Program-made: the position numbers and the translations under genes
In this document: positions 1 to 19,970 of the stretch, piece after piece
Layout: every line of letters starts with the position of its first letter
Numbering within the stretch: position 1 is the first letter of the stretch
NCBI GenBank assembly: GCA_032117235.1
Contig: JAULZW010000007.1
Span: 4,091 to 68,090 of the forward strand
Direction of reading: 5' to 3'
From: Minisyncoccota bacterium
GTDB taxonomy: Bacteria > Patescibacteriota > Minisyncoccia > SW-4-49-11
Length of the DNA: 64,000 nt
Notes under the pieces: model-generated
What the model saw: only the letters and a program-made list of their open reading frames with translations
Told to the model about the DNA's origin: nothing
The model's database searches: none

Positions 1-1254
1 TGCGTCATTTCTAGTAGTGTCATTAGGGTTTAGAACTGTATCAGTAGTCCAATGATTAGAATCGTATCCAAAGGTAGTACCCTGCGTTGCTTTCATCATC
101 ATCATCCAACCTCCACCATCGTATATAGGATCTAGTATAGAGTAAACTTTTGTCGGACCTACTACAGGTAAATCAATCCAGTATACTCCATTACTAGTAA
201 ATCCTTTCTCTACTAAATACTTAGCACTTGGAGCCGCCTTTGCTGGTGAAGATCCATCTTTTACTACTATAGGAGGAGAGTCATCTATTGTAAAGCCTAA
301 TGATTCTAATGACATTCCATCAGTAGTTCCATTTCCTTGAACATAAAAATCTATTGTATTAACTCCCTTTATAAGATTGGATATAATTGTTTCAGCCCCT
401 AATGTATATGTATTATTAGTAGGGTTCCAAACACCATTATTAAGAACTCCATCATTTACCGTATATTTAGGGACCCATGAACCTTGAACCCCTCCACTAC
501 CACTATCATCTGCTGCCCATCTAAATTTTAACCTTAACTTATTTATTTGAGAATCTGGTATATTTGATAAATCTAACTTTTGACGGAATACAAATTGAGT
601 CCACTTAGCATCATTATTTCCAGTATTATTATTAGCAATCCACCCGTCTCTAGCAGTAACATTAGCTACCGAGTAAAATGTATTATTTCCGTTTAAAAAT
701 GAGCTTGCTGAAGTATTATTTGGCAAATCAATATTTGAAACATTAGAAGCTACCTCCCAATAATTTATATTTGTTTTTGTGGTTGAAGCAAATATTATAT
801 CATTAACGGGTAAAATACTGGACTGCATAGAAACAGTATCCTTCCCATCTGCTGAATTAGATTTTATAAATATAGTGACTAATCTATTAGGGGTTACATT
901 TTTAGCAAACAACACTTCTACAACATTAAATAAATTAGGGTCTGTTAAATCAGCATCATTTCGTAATATTTTTTTATTTGTCTGATCAAATTTATAAATA
1001 ATAAGAGCTCCATCTTGATTTATGAATTTTAAATTACTACTATCTACAACATAAACTATTGAAGCTGTCTTCAACTCTTTTTCCATCTTATTTATAACAA
1101 ATTGAAGATTATCTCTCATATTATCACTAGTCTGAGATTCTCTTTGATATTTAATAACACTAGCTACTGGTTGAGATATAACTAGCATAATAATAGACAA
1201 TATACCTACTACTACCATTAATTCAACTAAAGTAAATCCTTTTTTTGTTTTCAT
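1..1254 (-). CDS. Large type IV pilin-like protein, 5'-partial (runs off the window start). N-terminus MKTKKGFTLVELMVVVGILSII is a class III prepilin signal, followed by a C-terminal domain of more than 400 aa.
   Basis: My own reverse-complement translation from the ATG at 1254..1252 gives the canonical G-F-T-L-V-E prepilin motif. I checked the frame for stops over 1-240 and found none. The ORF track does not list it because it is truncated by the window edge. Confidence 0.6.
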   Translation of the reverse strand, partial: MKTKKGFTLVELMVVVGILSIIMLVISQPVASVIKYQRESQTSDNMRDNLQFVINKMEKELKTASIVYVVDSSNLKFINQDGALIIYKFDQTNKKILRNDADLTDPNLFNVVEVLFAKNVTPNRLVTIFIKSNSADGKDTVSMQSSILPVNDIIFASTTKTNINYWEVASNVSNIDLPNNTSASSFLNGNNTFYSVANVTARDGWIANNNTGNNDAKWTQFVFRQKLDLSNIPDSQINKLRLKFRWAADDSGSGGVQGSWVPKYTVNDGVLNNGVWNPTNNTYTLGAETIISNLIKGVNTIDFYVQGNGTTDGMSLESLGFTIDDSPPIVVKDGSSPAKAAPSAKYLVEKGFTSNGVYWIDLPVVGPTKVYSILDPIYDGGGWMMMMKATQGTTFGYDSNHWTTDTVLNPNDTTRNDA

Positions 1255-1259
1255 AAATT

Positions 1260-1772
1260 TCAATCTATTCTATATAATTCAATAGTAGCCTTATACACTC
1301 TCAAGGCTTCACCTCTAGGATTTCTAACCACTACTGTACTAGTAACTTTAGGTATTCCTCCAATGGTAGTAGAATTATCAACCTCAACAAATCTATAAAA
1401 TATTTTATTACTAGTATCTGCTGACATTTTATAGATAGAACCTGCAGTTGGCTCATCTAAGTCACAAGTACTCCCATTAATAATATCATTGACATTATCA
1501 TCTGTACATGTAGAAGTAGAAGTTAAACTTGCTGTAGTAGTATCTACTTGATATGTATTTATACCAGTAGGTAAAACAGTACCATTAGCATAAATTGTTC
1601 TCACTATTTCAAGCCCTTCCGATACTAAAAGATTAGCAGTATTGTCATGTTGTAAAAAAAATTTAGCTCTCATTATGTTTAATTGCAAATCTAACATTGC
1701 TATAAAAGAGGTAGTTAGAATTGTGATGGCAACTAATGATCCTACTAATGTAGCCCCTTTTCTAGTTTTCAT
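1260..1772 (-). CDS. Minor pilin / pseudopilin-like protein. It has a prepilin-like N-terminus but lacks the Glu at +5.
   Basis: N-terminus MKTRKGATLVGSLVAITILTT is a hydrophobic helix right after a basic residue and Gly. It sits between a pilin and pilD. Confidence 0.4.
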   Translation of the reverse strand: MKTRKGATLVGSLVAITILTTSFIAMLDLQLNIMRAKFFLQHDNTANLLVSEGLEIVRTIYANGTVLPTGINTYQVDTTTASLTSTSTCTDDNVNDIINGSTCDLDEPTAGSIYKMSADTSNKIFYRFVEVDNSTTIGGIPKVTSTVVVRNPRGEALRVYKATIELYRID

Positions 1773-1777
1773 ACTAA

Positions 1778-2254
1778 TTATTTTACTTCAATTAAACCAG
1801 AGCTAGTGACTCTAATTGTTTTGGAAATACCTTTAGTCAATGTAATAGACTTTTCAGTAGTGGCTGCAAAAGGTACATCAAAGTTAAATGTAACATCAGC
1901 ATCTATATCGGCATAATTTAAAGTTTTGGTGGACAATGAATAATTAGACTCATTGCAAATAGTTGACGGGGGTGTACTGGAAGTATAAATTGGTTGTATT
2001 TCTTTAGTAGAACTAGTTATTCGCACTCCTATAGAACATAGCTGTTTTATACTATCAATACCTACCGTCTGACTTTTTGAGGGTGCCAAGGCTTCATTCT
2101 GGGCTTTTCTAATAGCTTGAACTACTTGAGAAACATCTTCGTCTAACATAGCTCTTTCTCTAGAAGAAAAAAAACCCTCTACGCTTATACTTGATATAAT
2201 ACCTACTATAGCTAGTGATACTAATATCTCTACTAATGAGAATCCTGTTTTCAT
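1778..2254 (-). CDS. Prepilin-type N-terminal cleavage/methylation domain protein (minor pilin).
   Basis: N-terminus MKTGFSLVEILVSLAIVGII is the classic type IV pilin leader plus hydrophobic helix. Confidence 0.6.
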   Translation of the reverse strand: MKTGFSLVEILVSLAIVGIISSISVEGFFSSRERAMLDEDVSQVVQAIRKAQNEALAPSKSQTVGIDSIKQLCSIGVRITSSTKEIQPIYTSSTPPSTICNESNYSLSTKTLNYADIDADVTFNFDVPFAATTEKSITLTKGISKTIRVTSSGLIEVK

Positions 2255-2256
2255 AT

Positions 2257-3078
2257 TTATATATTAGGCATAATTAAATAATACCATATATTTACATTTG
2301 AGACAAGTTTTATTTCGATTAATGTATATACTATAATAAATGTTAATATAATACTAGGTCCAAATGCAATTTTTTGCTTCAAAGAAGAGTTGTGATTGAT
2401 AATCATTATGATTATGCCCCAAATCATACCTATGAAAAATGAACCGAAAAAAAACGGCATAGCCCAAATTAATGGGATAAATAATCCAAGCCCCAAAAAT
2501 AACTCTATATCTCCCCAACCTATACCTTGCTTTTTGGTAATAACATATAAAAACCAAGTGATAAACATACAAATAATAGCTGTAATAAAAGAATCCGGCA
2601 TTATTCGTGTTTGATAATATTCCAAACCGAACCATATTAAACCTAGAGTTTGAATTGTACGAAGTTGTATGACAGGTATAAGCTGATACTTCAAGTCATA
2701 GACAAATACAATTACTAATTGAGTAATTAAAGTCAGAGTAATTAAAATCTTTGAGATTTGAATCCAACTCAAACTATATAAACTTAATATATCAGGAATA
2801 AATAGATATATATAAGCTGTAAATAACATAGCTGTTATTAACTCTACCAGAGGATATTGAATAGATAGTTTCTGATGACATTTTCTACATTTACCTTTTT
2901 GTATTAAGAAAGATATAATTGGGATAAGCTCACTCCAAGTTAAGATATGTTTGCAATGCATACATTCTGATCTACCATTCCAAAATTTTTTTTCAGTAGT
3001 CATCCGGAATAAGACAACATTCAAAAAACTACCAATCCCAAGTCCTAAGATAAAGATTATAATAAGAACATATAGCAT
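2257..3078 (-). CDS. pilD: Prepilin peptidase (A24 family), PilD.
   Basis: Polytopic membrane protein. N-terminal Zn-binding CxxC...CxxC (CMHCKH...CRKCHQ) after a GSFLNVV segment is typical of PilD. It sits inside the pilus locus. Confidence 0.8.
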   Translation of the reverse strand: MLYVLIIIFILGLGIGSFLNVVLFRMTTEKKFWNGRSECMHCKHILTWSELIPIISFLIQKGKCRKCHQKLSIQYPLVELITAMLFTAYIYLFIPDILSLYSLSWIQISKILITLTLITQLVIVFVYDLKYQLIPVIQLRTIQTLGLIWFGLEYYQTRIMPDSFITAIICMFITWFLYVITKKQGIGWGDIELFLGLGLFIPLIWAMPFFFGSFFIGMIWGIIIMIINHNSSLKQKIAFGPSIILTFIIVYTLIEIKLVSNVNIWYYLIMPNI

Positions 3079-3121
3079 AAATACTAAACTAAAATTTATA
3101 TTTAATTCCAGTGAATTTGAT

Positions 3122-3151
3122 AGATAAGAGAAAATTAATTCTCTCTTATCT
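3122..3151 (-). terminator. Perfect 10-bp inverted repeat (AGATAAGAGA / TCTCTTATCT, 9-10 nt loop) immediately 3' of the major pilin gene. Candidate partial terminator or mRNA-stabilising hairpin.
   Basis: Read directly from the sequence. There is no clean U-tract after it, so it may be an attenuating or stabilising hairpin rather than a full terminator. Confidence 0.35.
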
Positions 3152-3168
3152 ACACAAAGTAACTTGAA

Positions 3169-3630
3169 TTATGGACAAGCTGTTAGTGACGAGTTAACTA
3201 TTGCCTCACCTGTAGCAAGAGTTATAAATCTTGTTGTTCCTGTACTATCTGCACAATACCAGTCAAGTTCATTAGTAGTGTTTCTAGTTCTAACTGCCAT
3301 AACCCAGAATCCAACACCACTATTACCTCTTATAGGAGTAGCTGCATCACCAGTACCCAGAGTTTCTCCATTAGTGGTAAGAGTAGTACGAAGTTGACCA
3401 ATTCTACCGGCAGTGGCAGATAGAGGGTTGAGATACTTATTAGTATTTAATGTATATCCGTCTAATTCCATAATGGATCTAAGAGAGGATAGAGCTGATT
3501 GCACAGAAGCTGCTCTACCACGACTTCTAGCACTATTTACATTTACTAATACTACTGAGGCTAAGATACCAATAATGGCAATTACCACAAGTAATTCAAT
3601 CAATGTAAATCCTTTTTGTAATTTTTTCAT
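3169..3630 (-). CDS. pilA: Major type IV pilin (PilA-like). N-terminus MKKLQKGFTLIELLVVIAIIGILA, C-terminal Cys pair.
   Basis: Canonical prepilin leader. 153 aa with C...C near the C-terminus (disulfide loop). Strong SD AAAGGAGGTG 7 nt upstream and a TATAAT -10 at 3687..3682 suggest a dedicated promoter and high expression. Confidence 0.75.
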   Translation of the reverse strand: MKKLQKGFTLIELLVVIAIIGILASVVLVNVNSARSRGRAASVQSALSSLRSIMELDGYTLNTNKYLNPLSATAGRIGQLRTTLTTNGETLGTGDAATPIRGNSGVGFWVMAVRTRNTTNELDWYCADSTGTTRFITLATGEAIVNSSLTACP

Positions 3631-3689
3631 TTTTTCACACCTCCTTTCTTTATCATATATTTACATTTATTTAATATCTTGATTATATT

Positions 3690-4907
3690 TTAGAATGCTC
3701 CAGCGATATTGTAAATAGGCATTAAAACTGCTAATACAAATATACCGACCCCGACTCCAAGTCCTACTATCATCACTGGTTCTACTAAAACTGTTAGGTT
3801 AGCGACAAGATTATCCACTTCTTGTTTATAGAATCTAGTTAAAGTTTGTAAAACCAAAATAGTTTTTCCTGTTTTCTCTCCTACCGAGATAATCTGAGAG
3901 GCAATATATGGAAATTCCGGGTATTTCATCAAAGTATCAGACAATTGCCCACCACCTTTCACACTCTCAATAGCTTCTAGAATTATTTTTTCAAAAACAG
4001 AATTTCCTACTATTTTAGAGTTTATTTCTAAAGATTGCAGTAATGGAACTCCAGCTCTTAATAAATTACTTAAATTGGTAGCAAATCTAGCTATGTATAA
4101 TTTAGTAAATAATTGTCCAAATATGGGTAGTCTAAGTTGCCATTTATCTACAAATTTCTTACCAAATTCTGTTTTTGTAAAATATACTATACCTGCTACT
4201 ATACCTATAATTCCTATAAGAACTGGAAATATATGTTTTTGTAACAAATTTGAGCCTGAAATTAGAATTTGAGTCATCCATGGTAATTCCTGATCAGAAC
4301 CAGTACTTTCTAAAACCTCAACTAAGTCAGGTAAGACAAAATAGGCTATCCCTAAAGATAAAACTACAAAAATTAGCAGCACAAATACAGGGTAAGATAA
4401 TGCTCCTTTAATTTTATTATTCAAATCATATTGTTCTTCTAGATAATCAGCCATATACAGCAAAGATTCTTGCAACCCTCCAGAAGCTTCTCCCGATCTA
4501 ATTATAGATACGAATAAGTTATCAAATACTTTTGGATTTTTTGCCATAGCATCTGATAACAAAGTACCATCTTGTAATTCTAACACTAATTTATCTAAAA
4601 TTTGTTTGAAATATTTATTTCTATTATTTTGATCTCTTAATACACTTACTGCTTCTATCAAAGGAATTTGCACTTCTAAAAACACAGCTAGAATCCTAGT
4701 AAATACTACCAATTCTCTGGATGATACTTTGTTAAATATTTCTAAGTCTTTCCCAAACAAAGATTGTTTATTAATATCTTGTAGCGAGATTACAATCAAA
4801 TCTTTACTTTGTAGTGCAGTTAGGGCTGAGTCTTCGGTTGAAGCATCAACTACACCTTGTTTGAGTATATTATCTTTAGTTTTTGCTAAATATTTAAATT
4901 TTGCCAT
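3690..4907 (-). CDS. pilC: Type IV pilus platform protein PilC (GspF family).
   Basis: 405 aa with three TM segments and two GspF-type cytoplasmic repeats. Lies between pilT and the pilin. Confidence 0.85.
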   Translation of the reverse strand: MAKFKYLAKTKDNILKQGVVDASTEDSALTALQSKDLIVISLQDINKQSLFGKDLEIFNKVSSRELVVFTRILAVFLEVQIPLIEAVSVLRDQNNRNKYFKQILDKLVLELQDGTLLSDAMAKNPKVFDNLFVSIIRSGEASGGLQESLLYMADYLEEQYDLNNKIKGALSYPVFVLLIFVVLSLGIAYFVLPDLVEVLESTGSDQELPWMTQILISGSNLLQKHIFPVLIGIIGIVAGIVYFTKTEFGKKFVDKWQLRLPIFGQLFTKLYIARFATNLSNLLRAGVPLLQSLEINSKIVGNSVFEKIILEAIESVKGGGQLSDTLMKYPEFPYIASQIISVGEKTGKTILVLQTLTRFYKQEVDNLVANLTVLVEPVMIVGLGVGVGIFVLAVLMPIYNIAGAF

Positions 4908-4916
4908 AAATTTTTG

Positions 4917-5987
4917 TTATGTTGCTGATCTTTTGAGCATACTTCTTAAACTAACTGGGTCTGGAGAGTATAAAAGCGCAGTCTCATAAGAAACTATACC
5001 TCGTACAATTAAATCAAATAATGATACATTCATAGAAATCATCCCTTCTTTTCTATGAGTTTCAATAACTGTATCTAACTGGTAAATACGATTTTCGCGG
5101 ATTAAACTCTTTACAGCATTATTAACTAACAATATTTCTAGAGCTGGGGTTAATTCACCATTAACAGTAGGAATTAATCTTTGAGAAACAACTGCTTGCA
5201 GAGAATTAGCGATTTGAGACCTAACCTGTCCTTGCTGATAAGTTTGGAAAGTATCTATAATTCTATCTATAGATTGAGTTGCACTATTGGTATGAAGGGT
5301 TGAAAAAACTAAATGTCCAGTTTCAGCAGCCGTTACTGCCACCTTCATAGTATCTAAATCTCTCATTTCACCCAATAAAATAACATCAATATCTTGCCTA
5401 AATGAAGCCTCAAGAGCATTACTAAAACTTTTTGTATCATATCCTATTTCTCTTTGAGTAATAATACTTTTATCTGGTTTATATACAAACTCAATAGGAT
5501 CTTCTATAGTAACAATTTTTACATCTCTAGTATGATTAATTTCATTTATAACCGAAGCCAATGTTGTGGATTTACCAGATCCTGTAGGTCCAGTAACTAA
5601 CACAAATCCTTGCATTAATTGAGAAAATTGATGTATAACTGCAGGTAAACCTAATTGCTCAAAAGTAAGTATATCTGAGGGTAAATATCTCATTACTAAA
5701 TTCGGATATCCCTGAGCAATAAAAGCATTTACACGAAATCTAGAGGTAGGCTCATTGAATGTATATGCAAAATCTTGCTCTTGCCCACTATACAAATCGT
5801 CAATCTTATCTTGAGATAACATAGAGCTAAGCAATTCATTGATAGAATCCTTGGTTAAAATATCCTCCTCTATAGTTATTAATCTATTTTTAATTCTCAA
5901 TATTGGCTTACTACCTGTTGTCAAGTGAATATCAGAACCTTTAGCGTTAACAATTTGATTAATTATAGATGATAAATTGATTTGCAT
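4917..5987 (-). CDS. pilT: Twitching-motility / pilus retraction ATPase PilT.
   Basis: 356 aa. Walker A GPTGSGKSTT, Asp box and His box of PilT/GspE ATPases. No N-terminal GspE-N domain. Confidence 0.85.
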   Translation of the reverse strand: MQINLSSIINQIVNAKGSDIHLTTGSKPILRIKNRLITIEEDILTKDSINELLSSMLSQDKIDDLYSGQEQDFAYTFNEPTSRFRVNAFIAQGYPNLVMRYLPSDILTFEQLGLPAVIHQFSQLMQGFVLVTGPTGSGKSTTLASVINEINHTRDVKIVTIEDPIEFVYKPDKSIITQREIGYDTKSFSNALEASFRQDIDVILLGEMRDLDTMKVAVTAAETGHLVFSTLHTNSATQSIDRIIDTFQTYQQGQVRSQIANSLQAVVSQRLIPTVNGELTPALEILLVNNAVKSLIRENRIYQLDTVIETHRKEGMISMNVSLFDLIVRGIVSYETALLYSPDPVSLRSMLKRSAT

Positions 5988-6002
5988 ATATATATTTATA
6001 TT

Positions 6003-6377
6003 TTAATTTTGAGGTAAATACTTTTGTATAGTGCGCAAAACTTCAGTTGGAGTATAATTAGATTTGACCATATAGTCTAAGGCCCCTAACTCAAAAGCCT
6101 GATTAATATCAGCTTGTGAAGACAAATTACTAAGAACTATAACTGGGATATCTTTAAACTTATCTTCCTTCTTCAACCATTTTAATATATCAAATCCACT
6201 AATGTTAGGCAGGACTAAATCTAGCAATATCAAATTTATATTATTCTTATCCAAAATAAACTTTAATTCATCTTTATTAAGTGCAGTAAATACATTTGTG
6301 TTTATTTCTTCTATTTTATTAGAATACATCTGCTTAATAAAGGGATCGTCTTCTATTAGTAGTATGTTATATTTCAT
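6003..6377 (-). CDS. Single-domain response regulator (CheY-like receiver) embedded in the pilus operon (PilH/PilG-like).
   Basis: 124 aa. Acidic pocket EDD near the N-terminus, phospho-acceptor Asp in LILLDLVLP, and a conserved Lys downstream. Confidence 0.75.
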   Translation of the reverse strand: MKYNILLIEDDPFIKQMYSNKIEEINTNVFTALNKDELKFILDKNNINLILLDLVLPNISGFDILKWLKKEDKFKDIPVIVLSNLSSQADINQAFELGALDYMVKSNYTPTEVLRTIQKYLPQN

Positions 6378-6434
6378 GATTTATATATTTATATACTGTA
6401 TTGTGTATATTATATTATAGTTTTTTAATCTTGT

Positions 6435-8150
6435 CTATACTTCTACCATTGTCAATAACTCTGTTAATGATAAATATCCCATTAACACTTTCAGTATTCC
6501 ATCTTGCTTTAAAGTAACATAGTTATTAGTCTTGAGATGATTTATTATATCGTCTACTCCAGTATTTTGTCCAATTATTTCTCTTAATTCTTCTGTCACA
6601 GATAAAACCTCAAAAATAGCCATTCTACCCTTAAATCCATTCGTGCATTTGGGACAGCCTACAGGTTTATAGCCCTTATCAAAATTACCTGAGTATACGC
6701 TTTGGATATATTCAGCATCGAGAGTATTTAGAGAATCTTTAATATATTTTTGTTCCTGTTCAGAAAAAGTGATTTCTTGTTTACACTCTGGGCAGAGTGT
6801 TCTAGATAGTCTCTGAGCTATTACAACTTGCAAAGAAGCTGATAATAAGAAAGGTTCTACTCCCATATCGGTCAATCTAGGGATAGCTCCTGGAGCATCA
6901 TTAGTATGCAATGTTGAGAACACAATATGTCCAGTCAAAGCTGATTGCACGGCTAATCCAGCTGTTTCACCGTCTCTAATTTCTCCCACCATAATAACAT
7001 CCGGATCTTGCCTCAAAATAGATCTCAATCCAGTGGCGAATGTATAGTTAATATCTGGCCTGACTTGCGACTGATTAATTCCAGCTAAATAATATTCTAT
7101 TGGGTCTTCTAAAGTTACTATATTGATATCTTCTGTATTAACCTGAGCTAATAAAGTATAAACTGTAGTTGATTTACCAGATCCAGTAGGACCAGTTAAT
7201 AATATCATACCAAATGGCTTATTAATGGCATCCCGAACTATTTCTGCTTTTGGACCTATGTATCCTAGTGATTCTAATGTCCTTACACCACCTGATGTGT
7301 CTAAAATTCTAAGTACTATTTTTTCCCCATAGTTTGTGGGGAAGGTGGAGACTCTAAAGTCTATTTTTTTATCTTGCTCTATGATGGAAAATCTACCGTC
7401 TTGAGGCTTTCTCTGTTCATCAATTTTTAAATTAGATAATATTTTGATACGGGCTACAATTGCAGGATATAAAACCTTTGGCAATACGAGGCTAGTATAT
7501 AGAACACCATCTACTCTAAATCTAACTCTAACGGAATCCTCTGAACCTTCAATATGTATATCTGATGCATCACCCGTTACAGCTGTTTTTACAATAACAG
7601 ATACTATTTTTATAATTGGAGCAGTTTCTAAGTTTTCTTTATTAACATCTGAAATATCAGGAAGCTCCTTAGTTTCCTCATTTTTTTCTTCAAATTCTTG
7701 AACATTATCTTTCACCGCATTAGTTAATGTATCAAAATCTTTTAATAGATTGGTAATATCATTTTCTGTTGCTACAAATAATTCAAATTTTAAATATTTT
7801 TCTTGAAAAATAAATTTTATAGCTTGAATTGCATTATAGCTATCTGGATCTGAAATAGCTACTGAAATTAAATTATTATCTTTAGCAAAAGGTACTAAAT
7901 TATATTTTCTCATTATAGTAATAGGTAGAATTTCGTACAATTCTTTATCAACTTCATATTCTGATAAGTCAATATAGCTTAATCCCCAAAACTCTGCATT
8001 TATTTTTAATAACTGTTTTTCAGTAAAATTACTAGAAAGAAATTGCTTAATATCATCTTCTGATAAAGAATCAAAATTTGCTATGTCCTTAAATTTTTCG
8101 GGAAATTCTATTTTTAGAGATTCAAATGTTTTTCTTAAATCAAATTGCAT
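6435..8150 (-). CDS. pilB: Type IV pilus assembly ATPase PilB (GspE family).
   Basis: 571 aa. N-terminal GspE-N-like domain, Walker A GPTGSGKSTT, tetracysteine Zn motif CPEC...CPKC. Confidence 0.9.
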   Translation of the reverse strand: MQFDLRKTFESLKIEFPEKFKDIANFDSLSEDDIKQFLSSNFTEKQLLKINAEFWGLSYIDLSEYEVDKELYEILPITIMRKYNLVPFAKDNNLISVAISDPDSYNAIQAIKFIFQEKYLKFELFVATENDITNLLKDFDTLTNAVKDNVQEFEEKNEETKELPDISDVNKENLETAPIIKIVSVIVKTAVTGDASDIHIEGSEDSVRVRFRVDGVLYTSLVLPKVLYPAIVARIKILSNLKIDEQRKPQDGRFSIIEQDKKIDFRVSTFPTNYGEKIVLRILDTSGGVRTLESLGYIGPKAEIVRDAINKPFGMILLTGPTGSGKSTTVYTLLAQVNTEDINIVTLEDPIEYYLAGINQSQVRPDINYTFATGLRSILRQDPDVIMVGEIRDGETAGLAVQSALTGHIVFSTLHTNDAPGAIPRLTDMGVEPFLLSASLQVVIAQRLSRTLCPECKQEITFSEQEQKYIKDSLNTLDAEYIQSVYSGNFDKGYKPVGCPKCTNGFKGRMAIFEVLSVTEELREIIGQNTGVDDIINHLKTNNYVTLKQDGILKVLMGYLSLTELLTMVEV

Positions 8151-8328
8151 ATTTTGTGAATTTATTTAAAGAAATTTTTGATTACAGTAATATTATCTTC
8201 TATTTCAACTTTTTTATTCATAGAATTTAAAATTGGATTTATAATACCATATCCAAAATATAACATAATAATTATGCTTAATATAATTGTTATTGTTGTT
8301 GTGTTTATATTATACTTAAGTTTATTTT

Positions 8329-8901
8329 TCATAATGTTACATAATATGTTTTTACTCTTATTGAAGAGTTAGATTTTTGAGAAAAACCATCTACATCTAA
8401 GTTCGTGGTACCACTCACACTTTGAATATCAATATACTGTTTAGAATCAGCTAATTTAGATAGAAATGAATCTACGGAACTCTTATTACCACTAATAGCC
8501 ATATTGATGTCAATGATTTTTAATTTATTCGATTTTTCAGCACCTCCTAAAATTTCACTTGTATCTAAGTTTTCATCTTCGACATTGGATGTAGGAGCAG
8601 ATTTTTTTGTATCACCTAATTCAATACTTAAGCTAGATATGTTTACACCTGATTCTTGAGTAAAAGAATCTATTAAGTTAATTAGCTTATTCTTATCATA
8701 TTTATCTAGAACAAATTCATTACTAGATTTATACAATTTTTCTGGATTATTATCATTAAAAGCTTGTTTAAGTAGCAACTCTTTTTTCAATTTATCAATA
8801 CTTTCTAAGTCAGCAGACAGCATTGGTAGTAAATTTGAATTTACTAACCAAATTGCTATTAAAAAGATAATTATTGACAAAAGCTTAATTTGATTTGACA
8901 T
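8329..8901 (-). CDS. PilO-like pilus assembly protein (N-terminal TM anchor, periplasmic domain).
   Basis: 190 aa with a single N-terminal TM and a predicted coiled coil. Positioned between pilN-like and pilB as in pilMNO operons. Assigned by synteny and topology only. Confidence 0.4.
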   Translation of the reverse strand: MSNQIKLLSIIIFLIAIWLVNSNLLPMLSADLESIDKLKKELLLKQAFNDNNPEKLYKSSNEFVLDKYDKNKLINLIDSFTQESGVNISSLSIELGDTKKSAPTSNVEDENLDTSEILGGAEKSNKLKIIDINMAISGNKSSVDSFLSKLADSKQYIDIQSVSGTTNLDVDGFSQKSNSSIRVKTYYVTL

Positions 8902-8902
8902 A

Positions 8903-9430
8903 TTATTTTAATTTTATTTGTACATTAAAAGAAACTTTACCACCATCATCAGAATTTAAGGTAGAGAAAGTTACATTACTTATTAAAGGCAAGGCTTTAA
9001 ATGAGTCAATTTGTTTAGTTGTACTCATAAAGGATGGTGTTGACATAGCCATACTTATTTCTTTATTAACTTTATCATATGAAAACTGAGAAACGACAGC
9101 TCCTGGGATATAAGCTGACTCTATAGATTTAATAGCCGCTATTGAATCATAAGAATTATTTATTAAATCAGCAATATTAAATAAACCTTGATCTAAGTCA
9201 GTAGTTATGTAATAACTACTATTGGCATTGTCTAATTTTTCTATATCTTGAGTTATTTTAGCTTTCTCCTGAACAACAAAAAACCAATAAACAAATCCTA
9301 CTATACCAATATATACCAAAAAGAAACCTCCTAGTATATATATTAAAGTATTATCTTTACTTTTAGAGTTTAATTCGTCTAATTGCTCAAGATTTCTTTG
9401 ATTTTTGGGAATGAATTTAATAGTATCCAT
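8903..9430 (-). CDS. PilN-like pilus assembly protein.
   Basis: 175 aa with one TM (IYILGGFFLVYIGIVGFVYWFFVV) about 30 aa from the N-terminus, directly downstream of pilM. Assigned by synteny and topology. Confidence 0.45.
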   Translation of the reverse strand: MDTIKFIPKNQRNLEQLDELNSKSKDNTLIYILGGFFLVYIGIVGFVYWFFVVQEKAKITQDIEKLDNANSSYYITTDLDQGLFNIADLINNSYDSIAAIKSIESAYIPGAVVSQFSYDKVNKEISMAMSTPSFMSTTKQIDSFKALPLISNVTFSTLNSDDGGKVSFNVQIKLK

Positions 9431-9431
9431 A

Positions 9432-10499
9432 CTATTCTATATATTTTTTTAATGCCACACCTATTGACAATATTAAATCCTGCCAAATATCTACCTTCAA
9501 GTCATCATTATCAAGTCCTTTTACACTCAAGTTAGAGATTGGGGATGCAATAGAAATATTCATATTTGTATTATTAAATTGATTTTTGAATATAGAACCT
9601 ATATAATCTCTAACTCCTGTCATCTTAGATGTCCCCCCCAATATAACAACACTATTAATATCAATGTCCATTATCTCTTTCACATTTCCCAATAGTCGAA
9701 TCACATCTTTGACTATAAAAGAATTTATTTTTGACTGAATAAGCTCAGCTATTTTAGGATCTTTATTATTTACTCCATTTTCTTTTTTCAAATTTTCAGC
9801 TTCTAAAATAGAACAACCCCTCATCTGTTTTATGGATTCAGTAATTTGATTTCCCCCAAAATCAAATGATTGGATAGTTTGCAATTTCTTATAAGCATCG
9901 ACAACTATAACCGTACTATTCCTAGCACCTATATCAATAAGACAAGTATTCTCTTTAGGCAAATCAATAGATCTCAAAATTGAGAAACAATCTAATTCAA
10001 AACCCTTTACTTTAATATTTAAAGCCTTAGTTACTTCAAGATATCTATTAGCTACTGTATTAGGTACAGCTATTATCAAAATATTATACTGATCTTGAAG
10101 TTTATTCTTGCCCAGATTAATCCAATCCAATTGAACACTACTAAGTGGAACTGGAATATGCTTTTTAGCTTCCAAAGGAACTGCTGATAAAAACTCCTTC
10201 TCTTCTAATATAGGTACTTGTATAATTGCAAATAAAGCTAAATATGATGGCAGAGCTATATAAGCATTTGACATACGCATACCTGATCTTGCAGTCATAG
10301 CCTTAATTATGTCAGTTATTTTTTGAGGAGCGAGAGCCACATCGCTATCTTTTTGCTGTATTACACTATCAAGATCATCATCCCATATACTATAGTTATC
10401 AATAGAAAAGTTGTTAAGGTTATGACTAACTTCAACAATTTTTATAGTTTGAGTTCCTATATCTATCCCAAAAGATTTATTTTGTCCCAATGTAAACAT
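9432..10499 (-). CDS. pilM: Type IV pilus assembly protein PilM (actin-like ATPase fold).
   Basis: 355 aa. N-terminal FGIDIGTQTIKIV phosphate-1 motif of the FtsA/PilM actin fold. First gene of the operon. Confidence 0.75.
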   Translation of the reverse strand: MFTLGQNKSFGIDIGTQTIKIVEVSHNLNNFSIDNYSIWDDDLDSVIQQKDSDVALAPQKITDIIKAMTARSGMRMSNAYIALPSYLALFAIIQVPILEEKEFLSAVPLEAKKHIPVPLSSVQLDWINLGKNKLQDQYNILIIAVPNTVANRYLEVTKALNIKVKGFELDCFSILRSIDLPKENTCLIDIGARNSTVIVVDAYKKLQTIQSFDFGGNQITESIKQMRGCSILEAENLKKENGVNNKDPKIAELIQSKINSFIVKDVIRLLGNVKEIMDIDINSVVILGGTSKMTGVRDYIGSIFKNQFNNTNMNISIASPISNLSVKGLDNDDLKVDIWQDLILSIGVALKKYIE

Positions 10500-10556
10500 T
10501 GTATCTTTTTTATTTATATTCTATAATATTTACATTATATTACAAAATAAAAAATT

Positions 10557-11267
10557 ATGCAATATATTTTAAATAAAATCATATTGGATGCATTTTTACC
10601 AAATCAATGTGTAGCTTGTCAGAAAATTAATACTGTTAATCTTTGTAGTAATTGTTTAAACTCTATACCTAATACACCTAGCTTATGGTTAAAAGAGCAA
10701 CATTCTGTTCAGCCAATCTTTATACCTAAATCAAACACTATACCAAAAACACTGCGTAAAAACAGCTATCTAGACAGTATATTGAGTTGTACTAATTTTA
10801 AAAATCATATTGTCAAAAAAAGCATACATTACCTAAAATATAAAAATATACCTCAACTATCTCAGCCACTAGGTAGTATTATGCTAAGAGCTCTTAGTCA
10901 GAGTTTAAGAATTAAAGAAAACATTATACTATGTCCAATTCCACTACATCCAAATCGTCTTAGATTTAGAGGATATAATCAGGCTTTACTATTAACTCAA
11001 TATTTAGAATGTAAATTAAATTTACCCATATATAATGGACTTACTAGAATTAGAGATACTCCCAATCAAATGAAAATAACCGATAAAACAACTAGAATAG
11101 AGAATATGAATGATGCATTTGAAGCTAGGCAAGTAGCTGGTTCTGAGGGACAAAATATTATCATCATTGATGACGTGACTACAACTTTATCCACAATACA
11201 GCAAGCTGCCAAAGCACTTTCAAAACAAGGTTTTGCTAGTATAAATGCTTTGATTTTAGCACATTAA
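10557..11267 (+). CDS. comFC: Competence protein ComFC (phosphoribosyltransferase-like). Divergent from the pilus operon.
   Basis: N-terminal Zn-finger CVACQ...CSNCLN. C-terminal PRTase P-loop IIIIDDVTTT. Confidence 0.75.
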   Translation: MQYILNKIILDAFLPNQCVACQKINTVNLCSNCLNSIPNTPSLWLKEQHSVQPIFIPKSNTIPKTLRKNSYLDSILSCTNFKNHIVKKSIHYLKYKNIPQLSQPLGSIMLRALSQSLRIKENIILCPIPLHPNRLRFRGYNQALLLTQYLECKLNLPIYNGLTRIRDTPNQMKITDKTTRIENMNDAFEARQVAGSEGQNIIIIDDVTTTLSTIQQAAKALSKQGFASINALILAH

Positions 11268-15139: not shown

Positions 15140-16423
15140 TCACAAACTCCAATCAGATTGAATAAATTTATCTAACTTTTTATTATTAATCTTATCATCA
15201 AGACTAAAATTAAATCCTTCTATACCAGATTGTTTTTGAATTTCCAAGTCATACTTATCTAGTTTAGTCAAAGTATAATCAATTACAATATCTTTTGAAC
15301 TATTAACTGGAACTTTAATCTCAAAGCCAGCAATTTTTTTATTATAAGATGTAGTATAATCAACCTCATTCATCCTATTTTCAACACCTATAACACCATT
15401 AACAAAAGAATCCTTAGGTAATAAAACTCTAGTATAAGATTTATAATCATTATTGAGAGGTGAAGCAGATTTAGCTGTATTAATATAAGTAATAATAATT
15501 TTGGAACAAATTTTATCGCCACAGTCCCTAACATCTTTTTTTATAGATCTTTTCATATAATAATCAGTTTTCAAAGCTCCCAAATTAGCATCTACCAACA
15601 TAAAATAATCTCCCTTAATATTAGTGTCTATCTCACCGTCCCAATTTAGTTTGCTAATTTTAGCTTGAATCTTATCATCCTTACTCCAAAGTAAAATTTG
15701 CTTTTGCCGAGCCTGTTCTATAAGCATATTTCCAAGTTTATATAATGTTTGAGGAGAAGCTTTGCGAATTTTATTCTCCATCTGAACTGCTAAATTTTTA
15801 ATTGGCTCTTTACGGTCAGAACGACTTATACCCTTTTCAGCAAATCCAAAATTCAATTCATACTGTACAGATAATAATACATTTTCCGCATTCAATGCAC
15901 CCTCTATTCCTTCAACATATATTGGCCCAATAATCTTTAATATTTCTGGTAAAATAGAAGCATTAAATCCAATAATTCCAGCTATATCTTGAGTCCCCCC
16001 CTCCAATTTATATAAGTCTATAATTTGTTTAGCCGTAGTTGGAAAATCAGGAGACCAATTTGAATCTCTTAATTGCATTGTATTTATACCCAACATATTT
16101 TTATAAGCATCTGGAGCCTCGATACCAGGTTTACCATAATCAAAAACATTTGTATTATAAATAGTATATTTTTTAATTTTACCAGAATTCAAAGTAACTT
16201 CCGCAAAATTTCCAATATAACCTCCTGTTGGTCTTAATTCCAAAGTATTCTGAAATATAACTAAATAAGTAACTTCTTTTTGTGACCTAATAGAATTAAT
16301 AAGATCCAATTCCAACCTATATTTAGACCAGAAAATTGCAATCACAATTATAGCTACAATTACAATAACTACAAATATTAAAGATATAATTTTGAATATA
16401 TTCTTTTTAGAGAAAGACCTCAT
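15140..16423 (-). CDS. DUF4012-family membrane-anchored protein (function unknown, associated with polysaccharide clusters).
   Basis: 427 aa. N-terminal TM, conserved RPTGGYIGNF and DSNWSPDFP motifs shared with the paralog at 51193..53496. Immediately upstream of a GT4 gene. Confidence 0.55.
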   Translation of the reverse strand: MRSFSKKNIFKIISLIFVVIVIVAIIVIAIFWSKYRLELDLINSIRSQKEVTYLVIFQNTLELRPTGGYIGNFAEVTLNSGKIKKYTIYNTNVFDYGKPGIEAPDAYKNMLGINTMQLRDSNWSPDFPTTAKQIIDLYKLEGGTQDIAGIIGFNASILPEILKIIGPIYVEGIEGALNAENVLLSVQYELNFGFAEKGISRSDRKEPIKNLAVQMENKIRKASPQTLYKLGNMLIEQARQKQILLWSKDDKIQAKISKLNWDGEIDTNIKGDYFMLVDANLGALKTDYYMKRSIKKDVRDCGDKICSKIIITYINTAKSASPLNNDYKSYTRVLLPKDSFVNGVIGVENRMNEVDYTTSYNKKIAGFEIKVPVNSSKDIVIDYTLTKLDKYDLEIQKQSGIEGFNFSLDDKINNKKLDKFIQSDWSL

Positions 16424-17837: not shown

Positions 17838-18413
17838 TTAACTGTAAGTCTCTTCTCCTCTCAAAATGGCTAGTGCTTTGGGCATCATATGGGGTTCATA
17901 GACCCTAATAACTGCTAAAGGTGAAAGGAATCTCCGCTCAATCGTTGCTCCTAACCTATAATCACTACTATCATCAACCCTCTTCCAAGCTAGGTCAGAT
18001 ACGAACAACATAAAGCTTTTGTTGTTCCACTGCTGTTCCATAGTAGGATCAGTAGCAGGAGCTGAAGTATATTTAGTTGTGTGGATAGTAGTTGTGTGGA
18101 TAGAGTTTTTTGTACTGCTATCGTAGGGAACGGGTGTTGATGCCAGAACGGGCGCTGGAGCGGTGGCAACTGATGCAGGCGCTGGAGCGGTGGCAACTGG
18201 TGCCGGTGCTGGAGCGGTGGCAACTGGTGCCGGTGCTGAGGCTGGTATTAGCTCAGATTGTAAAATCCCTTGCCTCTGTCGAGAGCTTTGGATCATACTT
18301 TGAATATCTAACACATCTGCTTTCACAGAAGAGTGGACTTCACTCGCAGCTACAGGAGCTGCAAAGAGCAGGACTGCCGTTGTAAACAGCCCTATAAGAA
18401 ATCGGTTTCTCAT
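17838..18413 (-). CDS. Small secreted protein with a Pro/Ala-rich tandem repeat (APAPVAT units). Foreign GC-rich codon usage. The likely true start is the ATG at 18413, not the TTG at 18494.
   Basis: Signal peptide MRNRFLIGLFTTAVLLFAAPVAASEV begins at an internal ATG preceded by GAGGT. The track's TTG start is the TTGACA -35 hexamer of the promoter. The N-terminal half is about 60% GC. Confidence 0.5.
   Translation of the reverse strand: MRNRFLIGLFTTAVLLFAAPVAASEVHSSVKADVLDIQSMIQSSRQRQGILQSELIPASAPAPVATAPAPAPVATAPAPASVATAPAPVLASTPVPYDSSTKNSIHTTTIHTTKYTSAPATDPTMEQQWNNKSFMLFVSDLAWKRVDDSSDYRLGATIERRFLSPLAVIRVYEPHMMPKALAILRGEETYS
18140..18240. repeat. Tandem 27-nt repeat, about 3.5 copies (CTGGAGCGGTGGCAACTGRTGCMGGYG), encoding APAPVAT/APAPAPVAT/APAPASVAT on the minus strand.
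   Basis: Read directly. Units differ at 2-3 positions. Confidence 0.6.
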
Positions 18414-18465
18414 TGAAACCTCAATAGGACTAATGGACGGCAGCCGACATACTGCCTTGTGGTGA

Positions 18466-18494
18466 TTTATAACATATTTTGTAACTTTTGTCAA
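18466..18494 (-). promoter_or_regulatory. Sigma70-type promoter TTGACA-N17-TATAAA for the 17838..18413 gene.
   Basis: Minus-strand read: TTGACAaaagttacaaaatatgtTATAAA, with the ATG about 50 nt downstream. Confidence 0.4.
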
Positions 18495-18561
18495 TAAATT
18501 ACAAAGATATTTATGTTTTATAAAAAAATAAACTCCTATATTAGGTTATAGTAGTTAGGTA

Positions 18562-18594
18562 TAAAAAAACCACCCTCAACTCTGTGCTGAGGGC
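18562..18594 (-). terminator. Rho-independent terminator after the 18608..19237 gene: CCCTCA-N9-TGAGGG stem followed by a U7 run on the minus strand.
   Basis: Read directly. Minus strand reads CCCTCAGCACAGAGTTGAGGGtggTTTTTTTAT. Confidence 0.5.
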
Positions 18595-18607
18595 GTGATG
18601 TGATGGA

Positions 18608-19237
18608 TCAGTTGTTTTTAGTAAGGAGGCTTGTGGCTTCCTCGTATCTCCCCTGATTAGCAGCTTGGTCGGCTGCTGCGAGGTTGGGATGATGATTGCC
18701 GGCCCGCTTTCTAGCCTTTCTATAGGCATCCTGAGCTTCCTCAGAAGCCGCAAAGCCTTTAAAAGATTCCCTACGTAAAACCTCTCGAGTTTTCAGTGCC
18801 CAATCAAGCTCTTTTTCGCGAAGGAGCTGACTATTAAGGGCTTCACACGAGATGATCGTGTCAGCTCTTACTGAATCGAGGTGGCGGCTAAACTCTTCTT
18901 CTGGAAGGTTTGGCTGAACTGTCGTACTATTCAAGCCTCCGCTCACCCCAGTTCCGAAGAGGGAGAAGGCTGCAGAACCCCCAGTGGAGTTGATATTAGC
19001 AGCCTTGCTCACCACAAGGCGAGATTTAAGGACAACAATCTGTCCGTTGTAGAGGCAGGGGAAGCTGTCCTCCCTCTCAAAACTAGACCTCCCCTCTTGG
19101 CCAGGAGCACCCGGAAATCCGGGCGCAATGGCAGGTGATACTGGGGCTCTATATTCCCAAGCTTTCGCTGGGAGAATAGCCCCAGCCCCAATGACAAAAG
19201 TGGCTAAATACAGCTGAAATCGAGTTAGATTTCTCAT
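18608..19237 (-). CDS. Secreted hypothetical protein (209 aa, signal peptide MRNLTRFQLYLATFVIGAGAILPAKA). Foreign GC-rich codon usage.
   Basis: ORF with a clear Sec signal and AXA cleavage site. About 55-58% GC with C-ending codons against a genome of about 30%. The upstream leader is CU-rich with no SD. Confidence 0.5.
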   Translation of the reverse strand: MRNLTRFQLYLATFVIGAGAILPAKAWEYRAPVSPAIAPGFPGAPGQEGRSSFEREDSFPCLYNGQIVVLKSRLVVSKAANINSTGGSAAFSLFGTGVSGGLNSTTVQPNLPEEEFSRHLDSVRADTIISCEALNSQLLREKELDWALKTREVLRRESFKGFAASEEAQDAYRKARKRAGNHHPNLAAADQAANQGRYEEATSLLTKNN

Positions 19238-19277
19238 GAGAGGACGACGAGGAGATATGGTTTTGAGGGCTAAAGGG

Positions 19278-19336
19278 ACTCTTTAGCACCTTTTAATATA
19301 TATCTACACTGAATATACTAAAAGGTGCTAAAGAGT
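19278..19336. repeat. Perfect 18-bp inverted repeat (ACTCTTTAGCACCTTTTA ... TAAAAGGTGCTAAAGAGT) with a 23-nt loop, in the AT-rich spacer between two island genes.
   Basis: Verified base by base (19278-19295 against 19319-19336). It lies inside the predicted 5' leader of the 18608..19237 gene. A T-run follows on the plus strand. Confidence 0.6.
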
Positions 19337-19422
19337 ATTTTTATCAAAAACCTATCTCTATAAAGATTTAATTATAAATGAGCATCAAATTGGTATAAAT
19401 TATGAATTAATACCATAGGCGG

Positions 19423-19451
19423 AATATAACACAAAATTTTAATTCTGTCAA
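19423..19451 (-). promoter_or_regulatory. Candidate sigma70 promoter TTGACA-N17-TATATT, about 180 nt upstream of the 18608..19237 start.
   Basis: Minus-strand read: TTGACAgaattaaaattttgtgtTATATT. The implied long leader contains the 18-bp hairpin. Confidence 0.35.
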
Positions 19452-19499
19452 ATCATAACAACATCATTGTTATATATTTATAAGTAAAAGAGCCCGCTC

Positions 19500-19531
19500 A
19501 TACATGGGTATGAACGGGCGGGTAAGGTGCT
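19500..19531 (-). terminator. Rho-independent terminator after the 19545..19970 gene (GCCCGTTCAT-N8-ATGAGCGGGC, then TCTTTTACTT).
   Basis: Read directly. 10-bp stem with one mismatch and a U-rich tail. Confidence 0.45.
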
Positions 19532-19544
19532 GAGCAACGAGGGC

Positions 19545-19970
19545 TCAGTGAAGAGAACCACAAGGAGCAGGTGCGTGGTGAACAGGCACGTTGCCCACCA
19601 GGGGTGGGCGTGACCGTTGACCCTGCTGGGAGCAGGTGGCGGGCTGAAGCCGAAGTTGCGTTCCAGCACCAACAAGCAAAACAGGATATCCGGTCTCCGG
19701 TTCAATGAACCGGGTGGCCCCAGGGAAGTTGATGTGGTTGTTGTTGGTCCACAGATCAGGACCGACCTCAACTCCTGCTGTCACCCGGCAACCGTTGTTG
19801 ACGCGGCAATAATGCTGCGCGGCGGATATCGATACGTAGGTTCTGGCCGTCGAGTTGAGAGGCCCCACAGCTACCCGGGGGTAGATTGCCTGAGCCCTGG
19901 CGGGGACGATGGTGGCGGAAGCCACCAGAACGCCGGTGATGATGGCATTGAACTTGGAACGTTTATTCAT
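19545..19970 (-). CDS. Small secreted Cys-containing hypothetical protein (141 aa, signal peptide MNKRSKFNAIITGVLVASATIVPARAQA). Foreign GC-rich codon usage.
   Basis: Sec signal with AXA site, 4 Cys in the mature part. Third codon positions are strongly C/G (atC acC gcC ttC...). Confidence 0.5.
   Translation of the reverse strand: MNKRSKFNAIITGVLVASATIVPARAQAIYPRVAVGPLNSTARTYVSISAAQHYCRVNNGCRVTAGVEVGPDLWTNNNHINFPGATRFIEPETGYPVLLVGAGTQLRLQPATCSQQGQRSRPPLVGNVPVHHAPAPCGSLH

Follow-up and report, generated by a model that had tools for sequence, protein, structure and literature searches.

Type IV pili, alongside ComEC, ComFC and DprA, are considered hallmarks of bacteria in the Candidate Phyla Radiation (CPR) (PMC6744442, PMC10187176), in which retractile machines similar to the type IVa pilus (T4aP), but of a monoderm style, are widespread (PMC6744442). 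The pilins of such machines can be modular, with 264 architectures described, CPR examples included (PMC8179133). In Streptococcus sanguinis, which assembles a monoderm retractile pilus through PilM, PilN, PilO, PilC and PilD with the motors PilB and PilT, two minor pilins also named PilB and PilC consist of a small pilin module bearing a binding module, of the von Willebrand factor A (vWA) and concanavalin-A-like lectin type respectively, which the filament displays; glycans are bound by the module of the lectin type (PMC8179133, PMC9934059). Lectin-like minor pilins are likewise found in Saccharibacteria: the CPR bacterium Nanosynbacter lyticus TM7x has two pili, T4P-1 and T4P-2, with the minor pilins PilX1 (a beta-jelly-roll) and PilX2 (a beta-propeller), both likely to be located at the tip, and PilX2 is needed for host binding (PMC11623550). 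The subject of this report is a pilus locus with an exceptionally large modular minor pilin, found at the beginning of a 64,000 nt stretch of a Minisyncoccota bacterium genome (positions 4,091 to 68,090 of contig JAULZW010000007.1), hereafter the window.

The locus is taken to be the main type IV pilus locus of this freshwater bacterium of the Patescibacteria (Paceibacteria/Parcubacteria-like), and as a whole it probably encodes a retractile pilus whose tip minor pilins display lectin-like modules for glycans of a host or partner cell. It appears to be an otherwise ordinary CPR pilus cluster with one unusual feature, a predicted giant tip pilin with two swappable modules that resemble sugar-binding domains. 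Unlike the pilins of S. sanguinis, the carrier is here PilW/ComGF-like and bears two stacked modules (PA14-like and intelectin-like), neither of them of the vWA or concanavalin A type; moreover, the modules are swapped between close relatives, and a receiver gene stands between pilB and pilT. In comparison with TM7x, the host of the locus belongs to another CPR class (Paceibacteria-like, freshwater), the grafted folds are different ones, known here from sequence and models alone, and the TM7x report mentions neither a response regulator nor comF (PMC11623550). New here are the build of the large pilin, in which three modules include a PilW-like carrier, the intelectin-like family to which the third module belongs, the footprints of module exchange and the conserved order pilB-receiver-pilT.

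The original prediction had listed the large pilin as a protein of more than 415 amino acids (aa). There are indeed 418 residues within the window, but its edge cuts the gene, and the true length is 611-619 aa: a protein search retrieved a full-length form of 616 aa (P0001), 100% identical over the 418 residues, as well as strain variants of 611-619 aa. A BLASTP comparison with its own matches splits the protein into M1 (residues 1-152), M2 (153-328) and M3 (329-616), every one of which has homologues of its own. Through its combination of an N_methyl match (~1e-7) with distinct modules it falls within the definition of a modular type IV pilin given by Raynaud et al. 2021. The pilin carrier M1 is 57-66% identical to ~380-aa pilins that bear LamG instead of M2 and M3. 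A plain sequence search of the PDB with the full protein matched only pilin N-termini, and a profile search with the homologue alignment mainly matched the PA14 region that the homologues contributed (RsgI3), the lamprey lectin reaching only E 0.46.

The nearest sequence relatives of M2 are ~230-aa PEP-CTERM proteins of no known function (37-56% identity). A global MAFFT alignment of the large pilin with 119 hits was discarded, having misplaced M2 homologues against M3, and module-specific alignments were used instead; as the faulty alignment had left M1 and M2 unmodelled in the full-length AlphaFold2 (AF2) prediction (predicted local distance difference test, pLDDT, < 50), M2 was modelled separately. 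The resulting model, from 38 homologues, is a beta-sandwich (pLDDT 92, predicted template modelling score 0.89), for which the best Foldseek matches are PA14 domains, namely the insert of the Kluyveromyces marxianus beta-glucosidase (3ac0) and the Marinomonas ice-binding adhesin MpIBP (6x8a/5j6y), at E ~1e-3 and template modelling (TM) scores of 0.41-0.45, followed by CBM35, MAM and Eph ligand-binding domains. M2 is therefore best described as PA14-like in fold, rather than as a demonstrated member of the family, since it has no match to the Pfam PA14 model (PF07691); in this, as in its moderate TM scores, it differs from the carbohydrate-binding PA14 domains of MpIBP, 3ac0 and the Flo/Epa adhesins, of which it is reminiscent in fold. 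Within the module alignment a W-A-A-D-D-x-G loop is invariant, and this presumably recalls the Asp-cis-Asp calcium/sugar site of PA14 lectins.

M3, for which there is no Pfam model, is 39-82% identical to three groups of proteins: stand-alone proteins of ~260 aa, PA14+GLEYA proteins of ~480 aa (for example in Aquirufa) and one protein with collagen repeats. For residues 331-520 the block-mean pLDDT of the full-length AF2 model is 82-98, and for the remainder of the module it is 53-98. The four best-ranked distinct PDB proteins in a Foldseek search were all intelectin-family (X-type) lectins, including Xenopus XEEL, lamprey serum lectin and human intelectin-1, and these matches span the whole of M3 (~280 residues) with a probability of 1.0 and TM scores of 0.43-0.47; the next matches, to the fibrinogen-like domains of ficolin, tenascin and angiopoietin, cover the first ~105 residues. 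At the sequence level the similarity is faint and centres on the GGGW motif. With 18.7 bits, the match to NCBIfam model NF040941 (fibrinogen-like YCDxxxxGGGW) stays under the cutoff of 30, and alignment by hhalign with human intelectin-1, using a sequence identical to 4wmq, gave E 3e-4 and a probability of 38-41% over only the first ~80-90 aligned columns. M3 appears to have in common with the intelectins (4wmq/6usc; XEEL, 4wmo/5zc0; lamprey lectin, 7e1e) the Y.C...GGGW motif of their fibrinogen-like subdomain and a similar C-terminal ...Y.R ending, although sequence identity is 11-12%, and whereas intelectins are secreted immune lectins of animals, M3 occurs in bacteria and phages, joined to pilins, to PA14 or to collagen repeats.

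The family is large, with 961 representative clusters at E <=1e-3, and the domain nearly always forms the very C-terminal end of surface-type proteins 250-3800 aa long. One homologue is encoded by the cyanophage P-HM2 of Prochlorococcus (BFVD entry E3SSV2; Foldseek E 2e-21, TM 0.70, 35% identity). The literature that was searched contained no report connecting intelectins to pilins, nor any that treats fibrinogen-related or intelectin domains of prokaryotes. The original prediction had proposed the large pilin as a candidate tip adhesin and had asked for a domain and structure check of its C-terminal part; as the extra modules do resemble lectin or adhesin folds (PA14/CBM35 for M2, intelectins and ficolins for M3), the proposal stands.

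The modules grafted onto this carrier differ even among close relatives. LamG is found on the orthologous pilins of all five related genomes and on those of 17 of the ~20 orthologues in databases, while a further ortholog (P0070) has a PA14 domain inserted inside the pilin module itself. Conversely, M3 is also fused to another pilin family (P0058, P0081), and M2 to a PilX-like pseudopilin (P0019). Sequence beyond the window start is available from a 135-kb Joint Genome Institute (JGI) contig of the same organism (L027), on which the gene following the large pilin (7871-9115) encodes a 414-aa PilX-like pseudopilin with the start KKGDISLLVTLMV and no Glu5. Its C-terminal module is similar to FGE-sulfatase/C-type-lectin domains, reaching 21.6 bits with PF03781, for which the cutoff is 23.3, and the orthologue in a related locus (L002) is only 149 aa long, without the extra module. 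The two ends of this gene's surroundings share a 63-nt direct repeat with 89% identity, one copy being the 3' end of the large pilin gene (7802-7864 of L027) and the other lying just past the stop of the PilX-like gene (9124-9186). Because the second copy can still be read as the end of M3 with its stop (...TGINRPARVEVYIR-stop; ...EGDSCTDPTGINRPARVEVYIR-stop), in another frame, it is the fossil of an M3 module that has been replaced.

Variation is concentrated in M3 at the level of strains also. Among four variants of the large pilin (P0001, P0243-P0245) there are no differences in M1, one in M2 and 17 in three loops of M3 (residues 523-527, 556-557 and 576-588), including a 5-residue indel. 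Such a pattern would be expected of binding loops under diversifying selection, four sequences being too few for this to be tested.

A comparable arrangement of constant carrier and changing cargo is seen for the 275-aa pilin encoded away from the locus, the presence of which had been predicted correctly. Throughout its family the ~150-aa pilin module is conserved (41-74%) and the C-terminal module varies: 120 matches include 33 with LamG, 20 with FGE-sulfatase, ten with Gly_rich_2, one with a canonical Fibrinogen_C and one with PA14+GLEYA, besides others. The C-terminal 120 aa of the 275-aa pilin itself have no detectable relative. FGE-sulfatase/C-type-lectin modules are classic targets of diversity-generating retroelements; such an element was rejected for this locus, as the scanned open reading frames (ORFs) include no reverse transcriptase and neither the window nor L027 contains a template/variable repeat pair. 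[quoted passage not shown] A broader hypothesis, offered tentatively and with more doubt than confidence, is that the lectin-like modules of CPR pilins (M2-M3, LamG, FGE-sulfatase-like and fibrinogen-like) are exchangeable host-specificity cassettes, recombined among at least three carriers (PilW-, PilX- and PilA-like) and leaving behind fossils and variation in binding loops, and that M3 stands for an extensive family, shared by prokaryotes and phages, whose fold is intelectin-like.

The machinery that would present these modules is encoded by 13 genes, all on the - strand, that run from position 10499 to the window start with gaps of -4 to 90 nt (Table 1); the window has a G+C content of ~31%, and its ORFs are intact with genetic code 11. 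Profile searches and the ORF map placed every gene listed in the original prediction where it had been located, including the complete core of PilM, PilN-like and PilO-like proteins, PilB, PilT, PilC, PilD and major pilin, and both minor pilins, one GspH-like and one with a weak PilV match. Related loci were collected through a one-genome-per-species scan with the pilin module (five close loci) and a metagenome scan with the receiver protein (seven more). In every one that is long enough the order is identical: comF, divergent from pilM, then N-like, O-like, a 56-aa membrane ORF (orf56), pilB, receiver, pilT, pilC, pilin, pilD, minor pilin, minor pilin and large pilin. This 13-gene order, together with the receiver and ComF, is kept in about ten related loci, at identities as low as 57% for PilM and 62% for ComF, which makes the receiver inside the cluster and the divergently transcribed comF constant traits of the clade. 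PilM is 57-99% identical at the matching position in L002 and L008-L014, the PilN-like protein 38-54%, the PilO-like protein 34-47% and the PilV-like minor pilin 43-62%; the C-terminal part of orf56 is 48-59% conserved in L009-L011, L013 and L014, and the ORF has also been called as a gene on independent contigs.

All core elements of a T4aP-like system are present, namely PilB, PilC, PilD and the major pilin, the signal peptide of which belongs to class III. PilB, in which a Walker A and a CPEC...CPKC zinc (Cys4) motif are evident, scores 540 bits against the T4aP PilB model TIGR02538 (short of the equivalog cutoff of 676), 522 against GspE and 241 against ComGA; for PilC the scores are 299 bits against GspF, 268 against the PilC model and 125 against ComGB. 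From the alignment subcomplex, PilM is matched by PF11104, and the N- and O-like partners agree with expectation in position, in size and in having one membrane segment, with no family match. No secretin domain, as expected of an outer-membrane PilQ, was found in the locus or the scanned ORFs of the window, which agrees with earlier observations on CPR genomes (PMC6744442). Judged from its genes, the locus is a retractile T4aP-like machine of the monoderm type without a secretin, because it combines PilT, PilM and the N- and O-like partners with such scores of PilB and PilC.

This assignment departs from the original prediction, in which the locus was called competence-type: PilB and PilC score as T4aP or type II secretion system (T2SS) proteins, far better than against ComGA and ComGB, and ComG and other Com operons are not known to contain genes for PilT, PilM and PilN/PilO, whereas genes for PilT, PilM and N- and O-like proteins stand here. 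That the pilus might nevertheless have the capture of extracellular DNA as its main job, for import through ComEC and ComFC as nucleotides or in transformation, is suggested by the ComF-family gene found divergent from pilM in at least seven related loci and by the weak ComGF-like similarity of M1, resemblances that recall the ComG pilus of Bacillus and Streptococcus with ComFC (7p0h); the adjacent ComF-family protein has a probable zinc ribbon and phosphoribosyltransferase (PRTase)-like domain, with ComF scores below cutoff. CPR genomes also widely encode ComEC, ComFC and DprA beside type IV pili, and natural competence is a trait of Saccharibacteria (PMC6744442, PMC10187176). Such a role is nonetheless unlikely, as the minor-pilin modules are lectin-like and not DNA-binding in character, the housekeeping genes khpA and trmD come after ComF, and neither ComEC, present in 86% of CPR genomes (PMC6744442), nor ComEA was found among the scanned ORFs of the window, which holds only 64 kb of the genome. 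In Saccharibacteria, mutants of a non-essential pilus (pilus 2 of TM7x) stayed competent (PMC11623550), and in Southlakia comEC is dispensable and the pilus genes essential (PMC10187176). Scarcely credible, finally, is a T2SS-like system that forms a pseudopilus in place of a surface pilus; PilB, PilC and several pilins do score nearly equally against GspE, GspF, GspG, GspH and the pilus models, but PilT exceeds its curated cutoff, PilM is present, GspD, GspL, GspM and GspC were not found in the locus, the major pilin has a C-terminal disulfide loop of the kind typical for T4a pilins, and related CPR bacteria visibly form type IV pili (PMC11623550).

An alternative of another kind concerns the cargo, rather than the machine. 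M2 and M3 might be enzymes or effectors delivered at the tip, acting in glycan remodelling or host-wall lysis, or structural spacers, instead of adhesins; PA14 domains also occur inside glycosidases, the best match of M2 being just such an insert in a beta-glucosidase, the neighbouring PilX-like pilin bears an FGE-sulfatase-like domain, and the M3 family has no characterised member. This is very unlikely, given that neither module matches a catalytic family, that the closest folds to M3 are all non-enzymatic lectins, and that many large surface proteins end in M3 and also contain PA14, GLEYA or collagen repeats, surroundings that are usual for a binding domain. Several observations do weigh against an adhesive, retractile pilus as the reading of the locus. 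The fold matches of M2 and M3 are moderate (TM 0.41-0.47; E ~1e-3 for M2), and most of M3 lies outside the window. The calcium/ligand site of human intelectin-1 (N260, E262, H263 and E274) is not clearly conserved: a low-confidence greedy extension of the hhalign alignment pairs WNENG.GLYP with CNTEHHCIGGGGYFPE, in which the equivalent of N260 is kept. The PilN-like and PilO-like proteins had no match in Pfam, NCBIfam or PDB sequences, their putative assignment being drawn from position, size, single membrane segment and conservation in relatives; the tip location is suggested by analogy with other systems; and no histidine kinase is encoded in the window.

If the locus does produce a retractile pilus with lectin-like tip modules, PilM, the N- and O-like proteins and PilC would form the membrane platform, and prepilins would be processed by PilD. 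The 153-aa major pilin would then be polymerised by PilB and depolymerised by PilT. The core minor pilins (GspH-like, PilV-like, the large PilW-like and the PilX-like one beyond the window edge) would prime assembly and end at the tip, where the PilW-like carrier M1 would present the grafted M2 and M3, most likely for binding to surface glycans of a host or partner cell. Cycles of extension, binding and PilT-driven retraction could leave the small cell attached to its target, and the exchangeable modules that differ between close relatives probably set the specificity of binding.

The receiver encoded between pilB and pilT, where it had been predicted, scores 70.8 bits against PF00072 (cutoff 30.2) and has no output domain; its phospho-acceptor set (D10, D11, D53, S83 and K105) is invariant in four orthologues. 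It occupies this site in L002, L004, L006, L008-L014 and L027. In the metagenome scan, the pilB-receiver-pilT arrangement was found solely in the close clade, in which the receiver is at least 70% identical, and none of the matches of 40% identity or less was flanked by pilus genes; since the scan reaches only close relatives, this is no evidence of absence of the arrangement elsewhere. PilG and PilH of Pseudomonas, DrdR and EmvR of Xanthomonas and EpsW of Myxococcus are likewise receiver-only proteins with an intact phospho-acceptor that are associated with PilB or PilT (PMC13507683, PMC11973254, PMC4671073), and EpsW is the second-best NCBIfam match of the receiver (59 bits), all such scores being far under the family cutoffs. 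In contrast to the PilG/PilH type, the receiver gene is here embedded between pilB and pilT and not in a chemosensory operon. From the position of its gene, the sole support, and by analogy with PilG/PilH, DrdR and EpsW, the receiver, phosphorylated by some kinase, would most likely tune the balance between PilB-driven extension and PilT-driven retraction.

The major pilin gene, the product of which is merely 39-72% identical among relatives, is flanked by two conserved non-coding features. Upstream of it, the predicted strong Shine-Dalgarno sequence (AAAGGAGGTG) and -10 element (TATAAT) are present and are conserved in relatives; a generic promoter scan was uninformative in such AT-rich DNA (95 sites against 71 +/- 9 expected). 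Downstream, between its stop and pilD, a 65-nt stem-loop is predicted at -25 kcal/mol (z = -6.1), with none of 200 shuffled sequences folding as well. The region has a mean column identity of 84% over five loci and is near-identical in the stem-loop itself, whereas the adjacent pilin protein is only 39-58% identical; at one pair of the stem, a locus has G-U and another has A-C, a fully compensatory change being absent. There is neither a U-tail nor a match to Rfam. The stem-loop is thus a candidate, which may act as an attenuator, a stabiliser of the mRNA 3' end or a recombination anchor for the exchange of pilin alleles.

The divergent position of comF relative to pilM had been foreseen, and the pairing is kept in L002, L008-L010 and L012-L014. 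ComF models are the top matches of its product (TIGR00201, 74 bits against a cutoff of 233; GntX, 77.5 bits against 304; E ~1e-21), which also shows a Cys4 zinc ribbon (DZR_2, 21.9 bits) and a PRTase-like domain (Pribosyltran, 19.6 bits), both below cutoff, matches the Helicobacter pylori ComFC structure 7p0h weakly, and is labelled 'ComF family protein' by JGI. Downstream of the gene are those for KhpA, TrmD, tRNA-Arg and RecG. ComF may couple the pilus to DNA import, as an addition and not as its defining function.

Table 1. Features of the pilus locus and the unlinked modular prepilin, with positions given in the window.
Feature	Position	Strand	Evidence
ComF-family gene, 57 nt from pilM and divergent	10557..11267	+	TIGR00201 74 bits, GntX 77.5 bits
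PilM, cytoplasmic platform protein (actin-like); opens the cluster	9432..10499	-	PF11104 7.8e-29; TIGR01175 112 bits (cutoff 133)
PilN-like single-pass membrane protein (putative), N-terminal hydrophobic segment	8903..9430	-	position and topology only
PilO-like single-pass membrane protein (putative)	8329..8901	-	position and topology only
orf56, 56-aa membrane ORF between PilO-like gene and PilB	8162..8332	-	ORF map
PilB extension ATPase	6435..8150	-	T2SSE 2.2e-125 and MshEN
Receiver-only (CheY-like) response regulator, 124 aa	6003..6377	-	PF00072 1.3e-19
PilT retraction ATPase	4917..5987	-	TIGR01420 420 bits, above cutoff of 319
PilC platform protein	3690..4907	-	two T2SSF stretches, 1.3e-50
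Predicted leader of major pilin gene: TATAAT at PilC stop, Shine-Dalgarno AAAGGAGGTG	3631..3700	-	conservation across four related loci
Major pilin, 153 aa, with MKKLQKG|FTLIE leader, C-terminal pair of Cys	3169..3630	-	N_methyl 2.6e-10
Predicted stem-loop, 65 nt, 15-bp stem, directly past major pilin stop, before pilD	3100..3168	-	folding and conservation
PilD prepilin peptidase / N-methyltransferase	2257..3078	-	A24_N_bact 1.7e-30, Peptidase_A24 1.6e-12
Minor pilin, GspH/FimU-like, MKTG|FSLVE	1778..2254	-	N_methyl 1.7e-5; GspH 28 bits, PRK10506 32.6 bits, both below cutoff
Minor pilin, PilV-like, MKTRKG|ATLVG, +5 residue not Glu	1260..1772	-	TIGR02523 E 1.8e-4, below cutoff
Large modular pilin, start at 1254, cut by window start, 418 aa inside window	1..1254	-	N_methyl 1.1e-7, leader MKTKKG|FTLVE
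M1, PilW/ComGF-like pilin carrier	796..1254	-	N_methyl 1.1e-7; ComGF-like 32.6 bits (cutoff 80)
M2, PA14/CBM-like beta-sandwich (predicted)	271..798	-	AF2 model and Foldseek
Start of M3, fibrinogen/intelectin-like domain (predicted)	1..270	-	residues 329-418 in window, rest to 611-619 beyond edge
Second modular prepilin, 275 aa, unlinked to the locus, adjoins VKOR gene	43402..44229	-	N_methyl 1.8e-6

Other parts of the window also encode surface-related proteins. Within a surface-polysaccharide cluster of glycosyltransferase, Wzy, Wzz and DUF4012 genes, three blocks of 45-59% G+C, separated by AT-rich spacers, stand out from the 31% G+C genome at 17838..19970. Each contains one ORF (17838..18494, 18608..19237 and 19545..19970, - strand) with a signal-peptide-like N-terminus, and in one case an APAPVATAPAP repeat; a further ORF is at 20087..20614. 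Neither Pfam nor Rfam gave a match for the G+C-rich ORFs, and a search for relatives in viruses returned none. Since the ORFs of 141 aa and 209 aa have the same surroundings on a Logan contig assembled independently, a chimera of a single assembly is not the explanation; the products may be small secreted proteins that were acquired horizontally. Two DUF4012 proteins (15140..16423, 427 aa, and 51193..53496, 767 aa; both - strand) each adjoin a GT4 glycosyltransferase, and their genes share a 65-nt stretch of 74% identity (16007-16071 and 52228-52292), a sign that these are surface-glycan modules related as paralogues. A 628-aa protein (35930..37816, - strand) with DUF11, DUF7507 and DUF7927 repeats, typical of surface-exposed proteins, is a candidate cell-surface protein unrelated to the pilus locus. 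Finally, two RNase J paralogues of 595 and 588 aa are encoded by adjacent and overlapping genes (38568..40355 and 40348..42114, - strand), the second with much weaker metallo-beta-lactamase and beta-CASP scores.

Host recognition and attachment by the ultrasmall bacteria of the CPR, or Patescibacteria, are largely obscure beyond a few oral Saccharibacteria, and this locus provides, for a Paceibacteria-like lineage of fresh water, a concrete candidate for how recognition is achieved, in the form of a predicted tip pilin whose two lectin-like modules vary among near relatives. It also draws attention to an unannotated domain family of ~960 clusters, to a receiver placed between the extension and retraction motors, and to a conserved hairpin that follows a fast-evolving pilin gene. 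Current ideas are not overturned; rather, the published concepts of modular pilins and of CPR pili are extended. Were the tentative cassette hypothesis true, the set of grafted modules would fix, and could rapidly retarget, the host range of an epibiont, and X-type lectins would not be an animal invention.

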